A stretch of DNA of 21,676 bases from assembly GCA_051117555.1 (NCBI GenBank), contig JBNPEG010000124.1:1-21676 (forward strand), read 5' to 3'. Every line of letters begins with the position of its first letter. Positions within the stretch are counted from its first letter, which is position 1. This DNA comes from Elainellaceae cyanobacterium. GTDB lineage: Bacteria; Cyanobacteriota; Cyanobacteriia; CAZCXK01. The translations under genes and the position numbers were made by a program. Below the pieces are notes generated by a model, which worked only from the letters and a program-made list of their open reading frames with translations, was not told the DNA's origin and did no database searches. This document shows positions 3,404-9,938 of this stretch, one piece after another.

Positions 3404-3597
3404 CCTGCACCAGAGAGCAGAGCACTACCCGTTGATTGTAATAGGCTGATAGTGGATAATCTAGCCCAAAAGCACTATATTAAGCCTAAGTGTATGACAG
3501 GGATCGGAACAACGTCGTCAAAATCTTACAATTAGCTATAAAAATTGGCGAATTTCCTTAGCCAAGCTAAGTGAGCAATTCAAAGATTTTCAGATGA

Positions 3598-3855
3598 TTA
3601 TAGGGGTGCATTTCCCTTGAGGCGACGCCACTGAAGCTCTTGAGTGAATTCATGCTCGAGTGAATCAAATTCTCGACTGAACGTAGCTGGAGCGAAAGTT
3701 GGCTGGCGCTTGGCAACGTGTGCGATCGCCACCGATAGTGCCCAAATGGGTGAATACATGATCCCAGTTGGCACCATCACAAACCAGATAAATACTGGAC
3801 TCAATTCTCTCCCCTGGGGAGAAAGAGAACGCTGCACCTGTTGAAAAATCCTCAT
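3598..3855 (-). CDS. Small hypothetical membrane protein (85 aa)
   Basis: ATG 3855 is preceded by GGAGGGAGAA, and there is a central hydrophobic stretch VFIWFVMVPTGIMYSPIWALSVAIAHVA. The ORF track starts 4 codons earlier (3867). Confidence 0.55.
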   Translation of the reverse strand: MRIFQQVQRSLSPQGRELSPVFIWFVMVPTGIMYSPIWALSVAIAHVAKRQPTFAPATFSREFDSLEHEFTQELQWRRLKGNAPL

Positions 3856-4171
3856 TTCTCCCTCCATTGACGGCTATTAATGTCCTGACTGAATAAGCGC
3901 ACCGAATCAGCTCCATGAGAAATCGTCCGCCTTGAAAGGCGGTCAAATTAGTCGATGAGGAACAGAATCCAAAAATGCCTGTCTATAGCGAGCCAGCACA
4001 AGATGGCACAACACTCACACGTGCGGTCGATCCCATCCGCTGGTATCGCACCTCTTAGACAATCAACGGCAATAAACCTGCGGTTTTACCTACCGTCGTA
4101 GCAAAACAGTAGATTGACGGTATCGAGTTGACACTTCTAATCTAGCTAGACCTGACCCGGATCATCAAAAA

Positions 4172-4221
4172 GCTATGTGCATCGTGGTATGAATTTTGTT
4201 CATACAGCCTTGCGCGATAGC
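4172..4221. repeat. Long imperfect palindrome with GTATGAA-N5-TTCATAC core
   Basis: GCTAT/ATAGC, GTGCA/TGCGC and GTATGAA(4187-4193)/TTCATAC(4199-4205) pair around a 5-nt loop. Confidence 0.55.
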
Positions 4222-4460
4222 GTGAGGACATCAAACTAGATGCACTAAAGATTTGTGAGCACCCCTAGCGCCTACTACACCATCCGCCCGTGGAGTGAGA
4301 CGAAAGAATTAAAAGGGAGGCTCTGCGGTGTCTTCCCCGCCGTTTAGCGGTGCAGAATGATGAAGCTCGTTGACGACGACACTATAGAGATAGTCATCTG
4401 GACCAAAGCTGAATGCATCAATCCAATTCATCTAAGGGGCAGATGCAAGCGGCTCATAAG

Positions 4461-4508
4461 TATTGGCGTGGCACAGCTAACTTGGTGGATTAAAGTAGTG
4501 GCGTGTCA
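4461..4508 (+). repeat. Two fragments resembling the left end of the 17839-17961 MITE-like element
   Basis: TATTGGCGTGGCACAGCTAA (4461-4480) matches TAGTGGCGTGGCACAGCCAA (17839-17858) at 18/20. TAGTGGCGTGTCA (4496-4508) matches at 12/13. Confidence 0.6.
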
Positions 4509-4538
4509 TGACGGTATGATGTGCATGTCCCTAAAGCC

Positions 4539-4568
4539 AAAAAAAAAGTGGGCGAGATGCCCACTTTT
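4539..4568 (-). terminator. Intrinsic terminator (possibly bidirectional) downstream of the 4632-4862 gene
   Basis: AAAAGTGGGC-GAGAT-GCCCACTTTT is a perfect inverted repeat. The A9 run at 4539-4547 gives a U9 tail on the minus strand. Confidence 0.85.
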
Positions 4569-4631
4569 CCCAATCATCGAGTCGCTCCTTTGATTTGTAG
4601 ATGAGTTAATGCCTATTGTCCCTATACCGGC

Positions 4632-4862
4632 TTATTTGCGAAAGCCTCGTCCTTCTTGAGGTTCATTCAGCATTTCAGGCGTAACTGCCGGGTTTTCAAT
4701 TACTTCTCGCGCATTTTCAAGCGTGCCCTCTTTATAGACCAAATCTCGGGGGTCGACGGGCTCCTTTTTGCCATGTTCAGCATTTTGCGCAGCTTGAGTA
4801 TCGGGAGAAGCTTGCGATTGATTTTGCTGCTCGTCGGCAGGTTGGGGTGCGTTCTGACTCAT
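4632..4862 (-). CDS. Small acidic, probably disordered hypothetical protein (76 aa)
   Basis: ATG 4862 follows GAGGA; the protein MSQNAPQPADEQQNQ...EGRGFRK is Q/E/P-rich and has its own terminator. The ORF track's longer start (4931) lacks an SD. Confidence 0.7.
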   Translation of the reverse strand: MSQNAPQPADEQQNQSQASPDTQAAQNAEHGKKEPVDPRDLVYKEGTLENAREVIENPAVTPEMLNEPQEGRGFRK

Positions 4863-5010
4863 ATGTCCTCGTGCTATAGCATGGGTTCCAAATTGTGCAG
4901 TACTAATGCCTGCTAATCTCATAGACATCAATGCTACAGTTCCAGGATAAAAAACTCATCGCCCGCGCGCTTCGATCAAAAGTAAGACATTCAAGCATAA
5001 GACATTGCTA

Positions 5011-5694
5011 ATGGTTAATCTCACACTGACGAAACATAGCCCGCTTTCAGGCATCTATCGAGCCTATTCGGCGACGCTAATCGATCAGCAGGGCTGGCAG
5101 ATTGCCAAAGTGTTCGGCAATCTGTCAGCCGAAGAAAAATCTCTGCAAACGGGATCGGGTTTAGCAGACTGGTCGCATATCGGCAAAATTTCGCTGTCGG
5201 GTCAACAGGCCGCTCATGCCGCTGAAATGCTTTGTGCTGGAGCTTTATCTATTTCACCCCTAACCAGCGTCAGCACGACAGACGTAGCAGCCTTGCGACT
5301 GACGGCCAATGATTATCTGATCCTGTGCCAAGTTGGACGCGAGCTGTCGCTGCTGGGTCAACTTGATGGCGATCGCACTAGGAATCGCATCACGATAGTC
5401 AATCAAACAGGCGCAATGGGGTGCTTAGCGCTAGCAGGGCAGCGTCGAGATGAGGTGCTAGAGCGCTCGACTGCGATGGATCTACGGCGCGATCGCCTGA
5501 TTGCTGGATCGGTGATTCAAACAACCATCCATACGATTCGCTGCACTCTCTACCGCACCTCACAGCTTGACGTCATCGTGCACCCGCGCAGCCTATCTGA
5601 ATCTCTATTTGACGCGCTTCTTGATGTGGGCATCGGAGTAGGCTTAGTTCCAACGGGGCTTGCCATCGTGCCAGTAGAATTTCAAGCAGGATAA
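5011..5694 (+). CDS. soxG: Sarcosine oxidase gamma-subunit-like protein (stand-alone GcvT/aminomethyltransferase N-terminal fold)
   Basis: GcvT-N pattern SPL....A....GW.....E.......G..D.S..GKI...G, then SoxG-like RLT..DYL, LAG....VL......DL......G...QT and RSLSE.L...L.D.G. There is no GcvT C-terminal barrel, and a soxB-like gene lies 1 kb away. Confidence 0.7.
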   Translation: MVNLTLTKHSPLSGIYRAYSATLIDQQGWQIAKVFGNLSAEEKSLQTGSGLADWSHIGKISLSGQQAAHAAEMLCAGALSISPLTSVSTTDVAALRLTANDYLILCQVGRELSLLGQLDGDRTRNRITIVNQTGAMGCLALAGQRRDEVLERSTAMDLRRDRLIAGSVIQTTIHTIRCTLYRTSQLDVIVHPRSLSESLFDALLDVGIGVGLVPTGLAIVPVEFQAG

Positions 5695-6678: not shown

Positions 6679-7878
6679 ATGCCAACCCCTATGTGGACAA
6701 CTCACGATGTCAAGCCTTTCTACGATGTGGTCATCATCGGCGGTGGCGCCCATGGATTAGCGATCGCCTATTATTTGGCAACCCGTCACGGAATCACCAA
6801 CGTCGCTGTTCTTGAGCAAAAATATATTGGATATGGTGCATCCGGGCGAAACACTGCCATTCTTCGCTCAAATTATCGTACCGAGGCAGGCATTCAGTTT
6901 TACAACCAAAGCCTTCAACTCTACGAAACCCTGTCACAAGAACTAGACTTCAATCTGATGTTTAGCCAACAGGGGCACTTTACCCTTGGGCATAGCACTG
7001 CATCTATGGCAGCGCTAACGACTCGCGCCGAGCAGAATAAAGCACTCGGCGTTGACAGCTATATGGTGACGCCTCAAGAGATTAAGGCGATGATTCCTGA
7101 CATTGATGTATCAGATGCGCCCCGTTATCCAATCATGGGAGCGCTATACCATCCGCCCGGTGGAATTATTCGCCACGACGCCGTCGTATGGGGGTTTGCG
7201 CGAGGCGCTGATCGCAATGGCGTGCATATTCACCAACTAACTCAGGTTGAGAATATTCTGACTGAGAATGGCTCTGTAACAGGCGTTCAGACGAATCGAG
7301 GAACAATTCACTGCGATAAGGTCGTCGCAGCAACCGCAGGATGGACGTCTGAGGTCTGCCGAACCGTTGGCGTCAGACTGCCGCTTGTGACACATCCATT
7401 GCAGGCATTTGTCACTCAGGGACTAAAACCCTGGCTTCATCATGTCGTGGTGAGTTCGACACTCCACATCTACATCAGCCAGAGCGATCGCGGTGAGCTG
7501 GTCTGCGGGGGCGCGGTCGATAGCGTTCCTCAATATGCGATGCGGTCGACCTTGGATGTTTTAGAGAGCTACGCGGCTCATATTTTAGAACTCTTTCCCA
7601 TTCTACATAATGTCAAAGTGCAACGACAGTGGGCAGGCATGTGTGATATGACCCCTGACTACGCGCCGATTATGTCGCCCGTCAGTGCGCTAAAGAATTT
7701 CTATATCACCTGTGGCTGGGGAACCTGGGGGTTTAAGGCATCACCGGCAAGCGGATACAACATGGCAGAGATGGTTGCGACAGAGCGCGTGCCCGATCGA
7801 ATTAACGCCTTTAGCTGCGATCGCTTCCTTGAGAATCGGCTGATCGGAGAAAAGGCGGCTGCCTCGGTTGGCAGTTAG
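6679..7878 (+). CDS. soxB: Heterotetrameric sarcosine oxidase beta-subunit family FAD oxidoreductase (SoxB/MgdA-like)
   Basis: Motifs YDVVIIGGGAHGLA.AYYLA..HGITNVAVLE (Rossmann), GRNTAI.RSNY, GGI.RHDAVVWGFAR (His aligning with the covalent-FMN His of SoxB), HPLQA.V, and GWGTWGFKA.P. Confidence 0.88.
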   Translation: MPTPMWTTHDVKPFYDVVIIGGGAHGLAIAYYLATRHGITNVAVLEQKYIGYGASGRNTAILRSNYRTEAGIQFYNQSLQLYETLSQELDFNLMFSQQGHFTLGHSTASMAALTTRAEQNKALGVDSYMVTPQEIKAMIPDIDVSDAPRYPIMGALYHPPGGIIRHDAVVWGFARGADRNGVHIHQLTQVENILTENGSVTGVQTNRGTIHCDKVVAATAGWTSEVCRTVGVRLPLVTHPLQAFVTQGLKPWLHHVVVSSTLHIYISQSDRGELVCGGAVDSVPQYAMRSTLDVLESYAAHILELFPILHNVKVQRQWAGMCDMTPDYAPIMSPVSALKNFYITCGWGTWGFKASPASGYNMAEMVATERVPDRINAFSCDRFLENRLIGEKAAASVGS

Positions 7879-7966
7879 GTATGGCTTGTCAATAAGATTC
7901 AAGGTTAATCTATGACTAGATTTGCTTGCGTGTGTTCATCCTTGTTCTATTTGTGTGTCCTGACCT

Positions 7967-9022
7967 ATGGCTTTTTCGTCTCTGTATCCCGTTGTCTGGC
8001 ATGACGACCACGTGCTGCTCATTGATCAAAGTCGGCTACCCAGTGAGTTTGCTTTAGTTGATGTGAAGCGCTGCGATGACATGATTCGCGCTATTGAGTC
8101 AACCATTGTCCGCGGAGCCCCTGCCATTGGAGTGGCTGCCGCCTATGGGATGTATTTGGGAGCGCGAGATATCAAAACGAGTAATCGGGAAGAATTTTTT
8201 CAAACCTTAGAGGCGATCGCCACGCAGTTTCAACTGGCATGCCCATCGACGGTGAATCTCGTCTGGGCAACCGAGAGAATGCTCAAATCGGCTCGTCAAA
8301 CCATCGGACCCACCGAGCATCTTAAGCAAACTCTTCTCAGAACGGCTCTAGACATTAATGCAGAAGGGCTCAAAATCTGCCAAAACATCGGGGATCATGG
8401 GCTCAGCGCGTTGCCCACCTCTCCACAGAAATTAAGGATTTTGACTCACTATAATGCGGGTGCTCTAGCAACCGCAGGGTATGGAACTGCCCTTGGCGTC
8501 ATTCGTTCGGCATGGCGAGAACAGAGACTTGAGCAAGTATACGTGGATGAAACTCGACCCCGTTTTCAAGGCTCGAAGCTAACGGCATGGGAATGTGTGC
8601 AAGAAGGAATTCCGGTGACGGTGATTGCCGATAGCATGGTGGCTCACTGCATGAAACGGGAGATGATTGATGCAGTCGTCGTCGGAGCCGACCGGATCGC
8701 GATTAATGGTGATCTTGTCAACCGAATTGGCACTTACAGCATCGCGGTCATTGCAAACGCTCACAATATTCCGTTTTTTGTTGCAGCTCCCTTATCGACG
8801 ATTGATTTTGAGCTGTCAGAGGGCAGTCACATCCCTATCGAAGAACATGATGCATCTGAGATTTTTCAGGTCGGAGAGAAGCGAATGTGCCCCCCTGAGG
8901 CTCGATGCTACAATCCGGTGTTTGATGTCACACCTGCCAACTTGATTACGGCAATCGTCACAGAGAGAGGCGCAGTTTCACCCGCCGAGTTGCAAGATTT
9001 ACGAGAAAAGCAAGTCGTCTAG
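7967..9022 (+). CDS. mtnA: Methylthioribose-1-phosphate isomerase homologue (eIF2B-like fold) with substituted active site
   Basis: Motifs [51 protein letters not shown] and NP.FDVTP. Activity is uncertain because of THYNAG, CPSTVN and NRIGT substitutions. Confidence 0.9.
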
Positions 9023-9032
9023 TACCAATACT

Positions 9033-9779
9033 TTAGGCGTCTTCGAGCTGAGAGCGGAGCTTTTCTAATTCGACATCGACTTCTTTATCCTGGCTGCTAG
9101 CTGGTAAGCTCGCAGAGTCTTGCCCTGTCATTTGCGATCGCATCGCTGCTAGCTCGTCGTCAATATCTCCCCCACTCTCCAACGCCTGAAATTGCTTTTC
9201 TAGATCGTTGCTGCCGAGTTCGGCGATCGCCTCCGAGCGGGCTTCTAGTTCATTGACTTTCTCTTCCATGCGCTCAAACGCTGCCAGCGCGTTTCCGGTT
9301 CCTAAGCCCCCCATCATTTCGTTGAGCTGCTGCGAAGCTTTAGCTGAACGGGCGCGGGCGATGTACATATCTTTCTTGGTTTTCGCCTCAGAGAGCTTAC
9401 TCTCTAAGGCCACCATGTTTTGCTTGAGCTGCTCAACGATGCCGCGCTGCTGATCAATTTGCCCTTGCAGGGCGTTAGCAGTTTCCTGATACGATTTGCG
9501 TCGAGATAGCGCTTCTCGGGCTAGAGTTTCTTCACCCTTTTGCAGAGCGAGTTGCGCCCGCCGATACCATTCCTCTGAGGTTGATTGTGCCTGACTGCAC
9601 TGCCGCTCTGTGCGCTTTTGGGTAGCGATCGCCTGAGCGACTGACTGGCGCAGCCGAATCAGGTCTTCCTCCATATCAATGACGGCCTGTTCTAAAATCT
9701 TTTCTGGATCTTCCGCTCGACCCACGAGGCTATTTAAATTTGCACGAATGACCCGCATGAGCCGATCAAAAAATCCCAT
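9033..9779 (-). CDS. PspA/IM30 (Vipp1) family protein
   Basis: MGFFDRLMRVIRANLN..AEDPEKILEQ, AFERMEEKV, DDELAA and C-terminal VDVELEKLRSQL. ATG 9779 follows AGGAG. Confidence 0.95.
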   Translation of the reverse strand: MGFFDRLMRVIRANLNSLVGRAEDPEKILEQAVIDMEEDLIRLRQSVAQAIATQKRTERQCSQAQSTSEEWYRRAQLALQKGEETLAREALSRRKSYQETANALQGQIDQQRGIVEQLKQNMVALESKLSEAKTKKDMYIARARSAKASQQLNEMMGGLGTGNALAAFERMEEKVNELEARSEAIAELGSNDLEKQFQALESGGDIDDELAAMRSQMTGQDSASLPASSQDKEVDVELEKLRSQLEDA

Positions 9780-9938
9780 GATGTCACTCCTAACGACACG
9801 ACGCGACATGATAACGATACAGAAGACGCTTCGACGAAGCCCCGATCATTGATTTAACCCAAAGCCACCCAACATTTGTGACGTCATCCATTTCATTATT
9901 CTCATGGTATCGCACCTTTGTTTTGCGACTCAGGAAAA

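Follow-up and report, generated by a model that had tools for sequence, protein, structure and literature searches.

The mtnA gene carried by a soil cyanobacterium, an Elainellaceae-type metagenome-assembled genome (MAG; GCA_051117555.1), on a 21,676-nt contig (JBNPEG010000124.1, the whole of which is called the window below), encodes an MtnA protein whose substrate pocket has been rewritten. The rewrite is centred on the pocket, lineage-wide and specific to this gene, and it affects the sole mtnA orthologue of the genome, which is kept by purifying selection. The Cys/Asp pair and phosphate clamp of MtnA, a textbook sugar-phosphate isomerase of methionine salvage, are invariant in every representative that was examined, and in the variant four family-invariant residues are replaced, a pattern far beyond chance. 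Because the described Cys/Asp isomerization of an Arg-clamped 1-phosphate should not be able to operate in such a site, mtnA probably shifted in function along the branch leading to a single small cyanobacterial family, changing its job rather than breaking.

The open-reading frame encodes 351 amino acids with no stop and no frameshift, confirming the initial annotation, made from the sequence alone, of a full-length and intact MtnA homologue with Cys92, Tyr162 and Arg253 at the codons listed in Table 1. The protein scored over the cut-offs of both MtnA models, NF004326 (455.6 bits, cut-off 271) and TIGR00512 (418.3 bits, cut-off 279), and matched Pfam IF-2B (PF01008) with 286.9 bits. It scored under the cut-off for ribose-1,5-bisphosphate isomerase (R15Pi; TIGR00511, 171.4 bits, cut-off 314.1) and below those of the archaeal IF-2B subunit models, which were the sole eIF2B-type models in the scan (NF006210, 68.9 bits, cut-off 339; NF004994, 67.3 bits, cut-off 249). 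The closest solved chains were Thermotoga maritima MtnA 1t9k (E = 1e-85), Bacillus subtilis 2yrf (3.9e-85), and Pyrococcus horikoshii 6a34 (3.4e-76), and the top Foldseek match of an AlphaFold2 model (predicted local distance difference test, pLDDT, 81.3; predicted template modelling score, pTM, 0.82) was the product complex of B. subtilis MtnA, 2yvk_A (E = 1.6e-32, template modelling (TM) score 0.90). By fold and by family, the variant protein is MtnA. Low pLDDT at residues 164–172, in the lid, was considered as a signal and rejected, as a canonical control model dips alike at 166–171 and shows the same confidence profile.

Codon n of the gene starts at position 7967 + 3(n − 1). In residue-by-residue alignment to 1t9k, 2yrf, and 6a34, the variant has THYNAG in place of THCNAG (ICNAG in 2yrf), CPSTVNL in place of RPTA(V/I)NL, and VNRIG in place of ANKIG, with further differences of IEEH for IEER and NPVFD for NPAFD. 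The last two had also been read in the initial annotation, and the retention of Arg49, Gln201, and Asp242, also claimed there, is confirmed. Conservation at these positions was measured with a profile of six variant sequences, searched against 1.84 billion representatives, and the best 150 representatives at 50% identity were aligned. Among them, position 92 is Arg, position 162 is Cys, and position 253 is Lys in 150 of 150 each, and position 294 is Arg in 149, the remaining one having a gap. IEER-to-IEEH (His294) is a fourth family-invariant replacement and should count as much as the other three. The two positions kept by the variant, Gln201 and Asp242, are equally fixed (150/150 each), and Asp242 is invariant across the six variants and 115 canonical sequences. 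The variant protein retains His161, Gln201, Arg49, and its lid loop, and Asp242, His161, Gln201, and the lid are invariant within its clade.

What these positions do can be read from characterized relatives. In P. horikoshii R15Pi (PhR15Pi), the 1-phosphate is reported to be held by Arg22, Arg65, Gln166, and Lys215, with Cys135 and Asp204 as the catalytic pair (PMC5789824); by motif equivalence, Arg22, Arg65, Gln166, Lys215, Cys135, and Asp204 are positions 49, 92, 201, 253, 162, and 242. In Thermococcus kodakarensis R15Pi (TkR15Pi), Arg254 on a long loop is described as another 1-phosphate ligand (PMC6423476), and His294 would be its equivalent, judging by ungapped spacing from the NK motif rather than by alignment. 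Within this ligand set (Arg, Arg, Gln, and Lys plus the IEER Arg), the variant retains Arg49 and Gln201 while Cys92, Arg253, and His294 are changed, so that two of five phosphate ligands have become uncharged residues, one has changed conservatively, two are kept, and the catalytic Cys is absent. Loss of this Cys is severe in the relatives: PhR15Pi C135S was reported inactive and C135A lost substrate binding (PMC5789824), and human MRI1 carrying C168S or D248A was reported to have no isomerase activity and not to rescue growth on methylthioadenosine (PMC2758758). Starting from the codons that the nearest relatives use, one transition suffices for each of the four key replacements. The initial annotation had counted the Lys-to-Arg change as a two-nucleotide one; a single non-synonymous step (AAR to AGR) is enough, and a synonymous step can follow.

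The replacements are shared by descent within one family. In a comparison of 41 related genomes, the GTDB family of the window (f1) comprises the window genome (G000), G001, and G002, all of genus g1, and G003 of genus g2. Cys92, Tyr162, Arg253, and Val318 are present in all four f1 genomes and absent from the other 25 aligned orthologues, the G003 protein being 74% identical to that of the window. A DNA pattern for H-Y-N-[AT]-G-A-L-A-T occurs in four of 401 genomes of the class, all f1, and in none of the 397 others. A search of 5.8 billion proteins scored 7,999, and among the query and the best 120 of these 7,999, which were aligned, the variant set was found in the query and five other clusters (93, 92, 77, 73, and 73% identical; 6/121 aligned), one of them named as an Elainellaceae MAG; the remaining 115 of the best 120 are canonical, from 71% identity down. 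In a tree of 42 rows, built by quick search, the seven variant rows form one clade (SH-like approximate likelihood-ratio support 100) on a stem of 0.22, where most other inner branches measure about 0.01–0.1.

At the DNA level, three of the four new residues are encoded by codons that differ synonymously between genomes: Cys92 is TGC in the window and TGT in G003, Tyr162 is TAT in the window and TAC in the three other f1 genomes, and Arg253 is CGA in the window and CGC in G003. Independent genomes with the same residues stand in for a check at the level of reads. Public Logan contigs from one soil-metagenome run also cover 7969–8245 and 8711–9018 with identical Cys92 and Arg253 codons, the Tyr162 codon being uncovered. 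The changes are neither sequencing error nor a strain-private defect.

The gene is under strong purifying selection. Nei–Gojobori ratios of non-synonymous to synonymous substitution rates (dN/dS) among the three g1 genomes were 0.045, 0.053, and 0.058 at dS of 0.37–0.86, compared to a median of 0.070 for canonical mtnA (148 pairs, dN below 0.06); comparisons with G003 were saturated. These values, far from 1, bear out the proposal that the fold is still under selection. Sequencing error and plain decay had been called a poor fit from the window alone, and they are excluded by the fixation of the residues in 4/4 genomes and six clusters, the synonymous variation at three of the four new residues, and the low dN/dS. 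Against this background, each variant sequence departs at 26–30 of the sites that are at least 95% conserved, whereas a leave-one-out count over the 115 canonical sequences has a median of 1 and never exceeds 7. All six variants share changes at 14 of 196 conserved positions: I33V, M46T/N/S, T91A/V, R92C, T94S/L, A95T, F99V/I/T, D134G, C162Y, A193V, L200F, A251V/I, K253R, and R294H. Of these, four coincide with one of the 14 ligand-contact positions (P = 0.011), and ten are no more than three residues away from a contact (P = 2e-4), the contact map being taken from R15Pi (Arg22, Arg65, Cys135, Gln166, Asp204, Asn214, and Lys215; PMC5789824), which agrees with the earlier impression that the changes concentrate at the pocket. 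The burst is confined to this gene. MtnA of f1 departs at 14–20 of 142 conserved sites (canonical genomes, 0–3 of about 120), and MtnP of the same genomes at 1–3 of 148, as in six comparison genomes outside f1 (0–4); because MtnP is ordinary, the acceleration is specific to mtnA.

The variant is not an extra copy. The window genome (100% complete) contains a single PF01008 match, so that this gene is its sole IF-2B/MtnA-family gene and no second canonical mtnA is present. The order mtnA, convergent Vipp1, SPOR is shared with G001, G002, G003, and the nearest canonical locus (L046, an Elainellales MAG, 71%), and a further locus (L064) retains the mtnA–Vipp1 pair. The variant gene is the positional orthologue of mtnA at the ancestral locus, changed in place.

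Table 1 The variant mtnA gene, residues of its pocket, and neighbouring genes in the window
Feature	Position	Strand	Remarks
Variant mtnA orthologue	7967..9022	+	351 aa, open frame; MtnA family models and structure model
Arg49, retained	8111..8113	+	Phosphate ligand
Cys92 (TGC)	8240..8242	+	RP-motif Arg position, 1-phosphate binder; role via Arg65 of PhR15Pi (PMC5789824)
Tyr162 (TAT)	8450..8452	+	Catalytic Cys position (B. subtilis Cys160, human Cys168)
Gln201, retained	8567..8569	+	Phosphate ligand
Asp242 (GAC), retained	8690..8692	+	Second catalytic residue (B. subtilis Asp240, human Asp248)
Arg253 (CGA)	8723..8725	+	NK-motif Lys position, phosphate/sugar binder
His294 (CAT)	8846..8848	+	IEER Arg position
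PspA/IM30 (Vipp1-type) gene	9033..9809	-	Convergent with mtnA, synteny anchor; PF04012, 205.5 bits
SoxB-family flavin adenine dinucleotide oxidoreductase	6679..7878	+	88 nt upstream of mtnA, same strand; TIGR01373, 474.9 bits, below cut-off 529.45
SoxG/GcvT-like protein	5005-5694	+	TIGR01375, 37.9, below cut-off

The SoxB-like gene was seen next to mtnA in genus g1 only, and the 296 nt available upstream of the G003 gene gave no sign of it. Among the window open-reading frames scanned, neither soxA nor soxD was found. An antisense rhomboid gene is flanked by the GcvT-like and SoxB-family genes, and about 1.6 kb (3404–5004), between a 715-aa protein without a Pfam match and the GcvT-like gene, contain no open-reading frame of at least 100 aa and no Rfam match. 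Rfam gave no match anywhere in the window, and a promoter and terminator scan of 7700–9200 gave nothing above shuffled sequence. No operon partner or regulatory context that would support sensing was seen at the mtnA locus.

The methionine-salvage pathway around the gene is incomplete. MtnP, the maker of 5-methylthio- and 5-deoxy-ribose 1-phosphate, is present in the window genome (330.4 bits, cut-off 274.85) and canonical at conserved sites. The genome gave no MtnB over the cut-off, the only match being a PRK06208-type class II aldolase on another contig, no match over the cut-off for MtnC, and no match for MtnD/ARD, MtnK, or MtnN; of the pathway genes mtnP, mtnK, mtnB, mtnC, and mtnD named in the initial annotation, mtnP alone was therefore recovered. 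The surroundings of mtnP (contig C29) and of the sole class II aldolase (contig C146) hold unrelated housekeeping genes only. This incompleteness is not peculiar to the variant, as true MtnB occurs in only 9 of 41 relatives and the pathway is incomplete also where mtnA is canonical and highly conserved. It is consistent with a published account of many cyanobacteria having mtnP and mtnA only, in which the onward route after the isomerase is raised as a question (PMC8102628). Four relatives (G005, G031, G024, and G033), and also the 73% complete G036, have MtnP over the cut-off and no mtnA match, and two (G006 and G032) have neither gene, the mtnA query being the window protein in each case. 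A dispensable mtnA can apparently be lost, and since relatives seem able to lose it, its retention at a dN/dS of about 0.05 is meaningful.

Given a changed site in a retained gene, the reading that we lean towards, at slightly less than an even chance, is that the variant is a re-tooled enzyme still handling a 5-substituted pentose downstream of MtnP. In such an enzyme, Tyr162, next to Arg253, could pair with Asp242 as acid/base, and a weaker, reshaped anion site might bind the same substrate differently or accept one with less charge, such as an unphosphorylated 5-deoxy- or 5-methylthio-pentose; Methanocaldococcus jannaschii MtnA is reported to take unphosphorylated 5-deoxyribose as well (PMC8102628). 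The enzyme is preferred because the gene is a sole copy without a partner, Asp242 and the lid have been preserved, as has the supplier MtnP, and metabolic orthologues present in one copy generally stay enzymes. A bolder version, which we regard as rather unlikely, is that the clade evolved a second catalytic apparatus in the MtnA/IF-2B fold. The protein would then be a Cys-independent isomerase or sugar-transforming enzyme using Tyr162 (activated by Arg253) and Asp242, with Cys92 and His294 giving the former phosphate clamp a new shape, which might coordinate a metal or hold an unphosphorylated 5-deoxy- or 5-methylthio-pentose. If true, this would represent a distinct route for S-adenosylmethionine by-products in cyanobacteria with mtnP and mtnA only.

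Several observations weigh against a re-tooled enzyme. Cys replacement abolishes activity in both human MRI1 (C168S) and PhR15Pi (C135S), as reported in the two studies cited above (PMC2758758, PMC5789824), and four invariant residues changing together is rare for a still-working enzyme. Within the variant clade, 40 of the 196 formerly conserved sites are polymorphic. Random canonical sextets matched for mean identity (n = 300) vary at a median of 10 such sites, a quarter as many, and never at more than 22. Four of the 14 contacts are among the 40 (A51T, P52L with Leu in half of the six sequences, A164S, and N252S), all invariant in 115/115 canonical sequences, and ten of the 40 fall at 88–105, around the lost Arg and the helix after it, so that the polymorphism looks like relaxed pocket geometry. 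The ratio of MtnA to MtnP distances is also higher within f1 (1.91, three pairs only) than among canonical genomes (1.21). The invariance of the four new residues in 6/6 variants is not significant alone, with 212 of 351 positions invariant clade-wide, and because all four are reachable by single transitions, the chemical character of Cys, His, and Tyr may reflect mutation and not selection. Finally, no downstream pathway gene or operon partner that would hint at a substrate was found.

The main rival is a non-catalytic descendant, a pseudoenzyme in which isomerase activity was lost and the protein was kept for a binding, regulatory, or moonlighting role, comparable to the eIF2B regulatory subunits or to the role of human MRI1/MRDI that does not depend on catalysis. 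Cys replacement inactivates relatives (PMC2758758, PMC5789824), and the eIF2B parallel drawn in the initial annotation's proposal of a pseudoenzyme or sugar-phosphate sensor holds in part, the joint loss of the Cys and of 1-phosphate ligands matching what is described for eIF2B-alpha (PMC5789824). The relaxation of formerly conserved sites, including contacts and the helix after residue 92, is in its favour, as is the human MRI1 (MRDI) role in cell invasion, reported to survive C168S or D248A (PMC2758758). Further support comes from a second cyanobacterial genus, which retains its sole mtnA although Gly stands in place of the Cys. The selection and the pocket focus on which that proposal relied have held up, while partner, operon, and regulatory context for sensing are missing, and the absence of two cationic phosphate ligands argues against a simple sugar-1-phosphate sensor. 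The gene is moreover a sole copy with no evident partner or paralogue, and pseudoenzymes in bacteria are as a rule paralogues of a copy that is still active; Asp242, His161, Gln201, and the lid are still invariant, and dN/dS within the genus is as low as that of the active enzyme. A pseudoenzyme is thus a serious yet doubtful candidate, and we consider the re-tooled enzyme at least as likely as loss of activity or sensing.

An ordinary isomerase of 5-methylthioribose 1-phosphate and 5-deoxyribose 1-phosphate, in which the substitutions are compensated and near-neutral, would fit the scores well over the MtnA equivalog cut-offs and the retention of MtnP. Sugar isomerase orthologues can also swap the catalytic base, as in RpiB, which uses Cys in Escherichia coli and Glu in Mycobacterium tuberculosis. 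We nonetheless judge it improbable in view of the four positions invariant across 150 representatives, the burst of departures, the inactivity reported for the Cys-to-Ser mutants (PMC2758758, PMC5789824), and the outcome for the other Tyr case that was checked (L131, below), a private singleton with Cys in each of its 119 nearest listed relatives. Early pseudogenisation, with mtnA a dispensable and drifting gene, could draw on the genes not found over cut-off (MtnB, MtnC, MtnD, MtnK, and MtnN) and on the constraint that seems relaxed; it is very improbable for a frame intact in four genomes and six clusters at a dN/dS of about 0.05 and dS up to 0.86, the more so as relatives with the same incomplete pathway have a canonical, highly conserved mtnA (a state also described in PMC8102628). 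A sequencing or assembly artefact, for which the uncovered Tyr162 codon could be invoked, is negligible, since four separately assembled genomes and further metagenome proteins carry the same residues with synonymous differences.

Other unusual mtnA genes were encountered in the survey. A Cys-less lineage with Gly at the catalytic position occurs in genus g12 (L022, G039:C19, and L025, G013:C291; also L134 and L135), with a single match per genome to the MtnA query and MtnP present; its Gly motif is found in 2 of 401 class genomes. Family f9 (L020 in G037 and L023 in G011) has a divergent mtnA on a stem of 0.54 in which the Cys is kept (THCNHGALATS, RPDKANL, NPASD/NPLAD), and G037 has a second copy, about 41% identical, beside a true mtnB on contig C27. 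In cyanobacteria with true MtnB (G008:C1:1071885-1073609, G034:C1:2252874-2254615, and G037:C27:1226-2973), the divergently adjacent MtnA is 40–41% identical to the window type, and there seem to be two MtnA types in the class, of which a single one goes with the full salvage pathway. G035 has two mtnA-like copies, and in one of them (L028, G035:C12:15957-16973) several pocket residues are lacking, with YGNCGG, no RP-motif Arg, GSQG for GADR, and NW for NK. In G015 (L031, G015:C23:74149-75195), mtnA was matched in three pieces with a TAG within the middle piece, which looks like a genuinely broken copy, unlike the intact variant clade.

Metagenome contigs were also scanned with H-Y-N-[AT]-G-A-L-A-T, a pattern that requires exact flanks and misses divergent Tyr variants. 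The scan gave four loci, two of them chance matches (L132 and L133) and two real MtnA genes, L130 (Ga0180433_10164509) and L131 (Ga0182024_10000955), both non-cyanobacterial, about 45% identical, and with Tyr at the Cys position in an otherwise canonical site. L131, of Acidobacteriaceae type, is private, as 119 of 119 listed relatives at 80–95% identity have Cys, and lone Tyr variants like it resemble errors or infrequent alleles. On this basis, the idea that Tyr recurs naturally in place of the Cys was rejected, f1 being the only clade-level Tyr state found.

Our literature searches found no description of a Tyr-type or otherwise Cys-less bacterial MtnA orthologue. The variant family is a natural experiment in how the MtnA fold departs from its ancestral chemistry, the same step as that taken by the eIF2B regulatory subunits. 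It also bears on the fate of the product after the isomerase in cyanobacteria having only mtnP and mtnA, as raised in PMC8102628.

Among known systems, the variant is closest to MtnA/M1Pi itself (B. subtilis 2yvk/2yrf and T. maritima 1t9k), with which it shares family models, fold (TM 0.90), length, positional orthology, and the catalytic Asp, Gln, first Arg, and lid; it differs by Cys to Tyr, two phosphate Arg to Cys and His, Lys to Arg, and changes at ten more near-invariant sites. Human MRI1/MRDI is an MtnA orthologue whose Cys and Asp are reported as proven essential and which has a second, catalysis-independent role (PMC2758758), but it keeps the canonical site, and the non-catalytic role, in animal cell invasion, has no known bacterial counterpart. 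The eIF2B alpha, beta, and delta subunits belong to the same superfamily, are described as lacking the catalytic Cys and 1-phosphate ligands, and re-use the pocket for a ligand (PMC5789824); one example is structure 7kmf, titled 'Sugar phosphate activation of the stress sensor eIF2B'. The variant is far closer to MtnA than to these subunits, scoring only 67–69 bits and under cut-off with the archaeal IF-2B models, and it has Tyr and not Ala or Gly in place of Cys, with no complex partners seen. R15Pi of T. kodakarensis and P. horikoshii has a homologous pocket, but the variant scores under the TIGR00511 cut-off and lacks the 5-phosphate site signature. DrdI, the 5-deoxyribose-1-phosphate isomerase, belongs to a drdK-drdI-drdA cluster, whereas the neighbours of the variant are SoxB-like and Vipp1 genes, the window genome has no MtnK-type kinase match, and its sole class II aldolase is on another contig in unrelated surroundings. 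The Gly variant of genus g12 (G013 and G039) resembles the window gene in being a sole-copy cyanobacterial orthologue that lacks the Cys and sits on a long stem (0.53), but with THGNAG, RPTARYLSW, GGDR, and AFKAG it keeps the RP-motif Arg and the Lys and is of independent origin.

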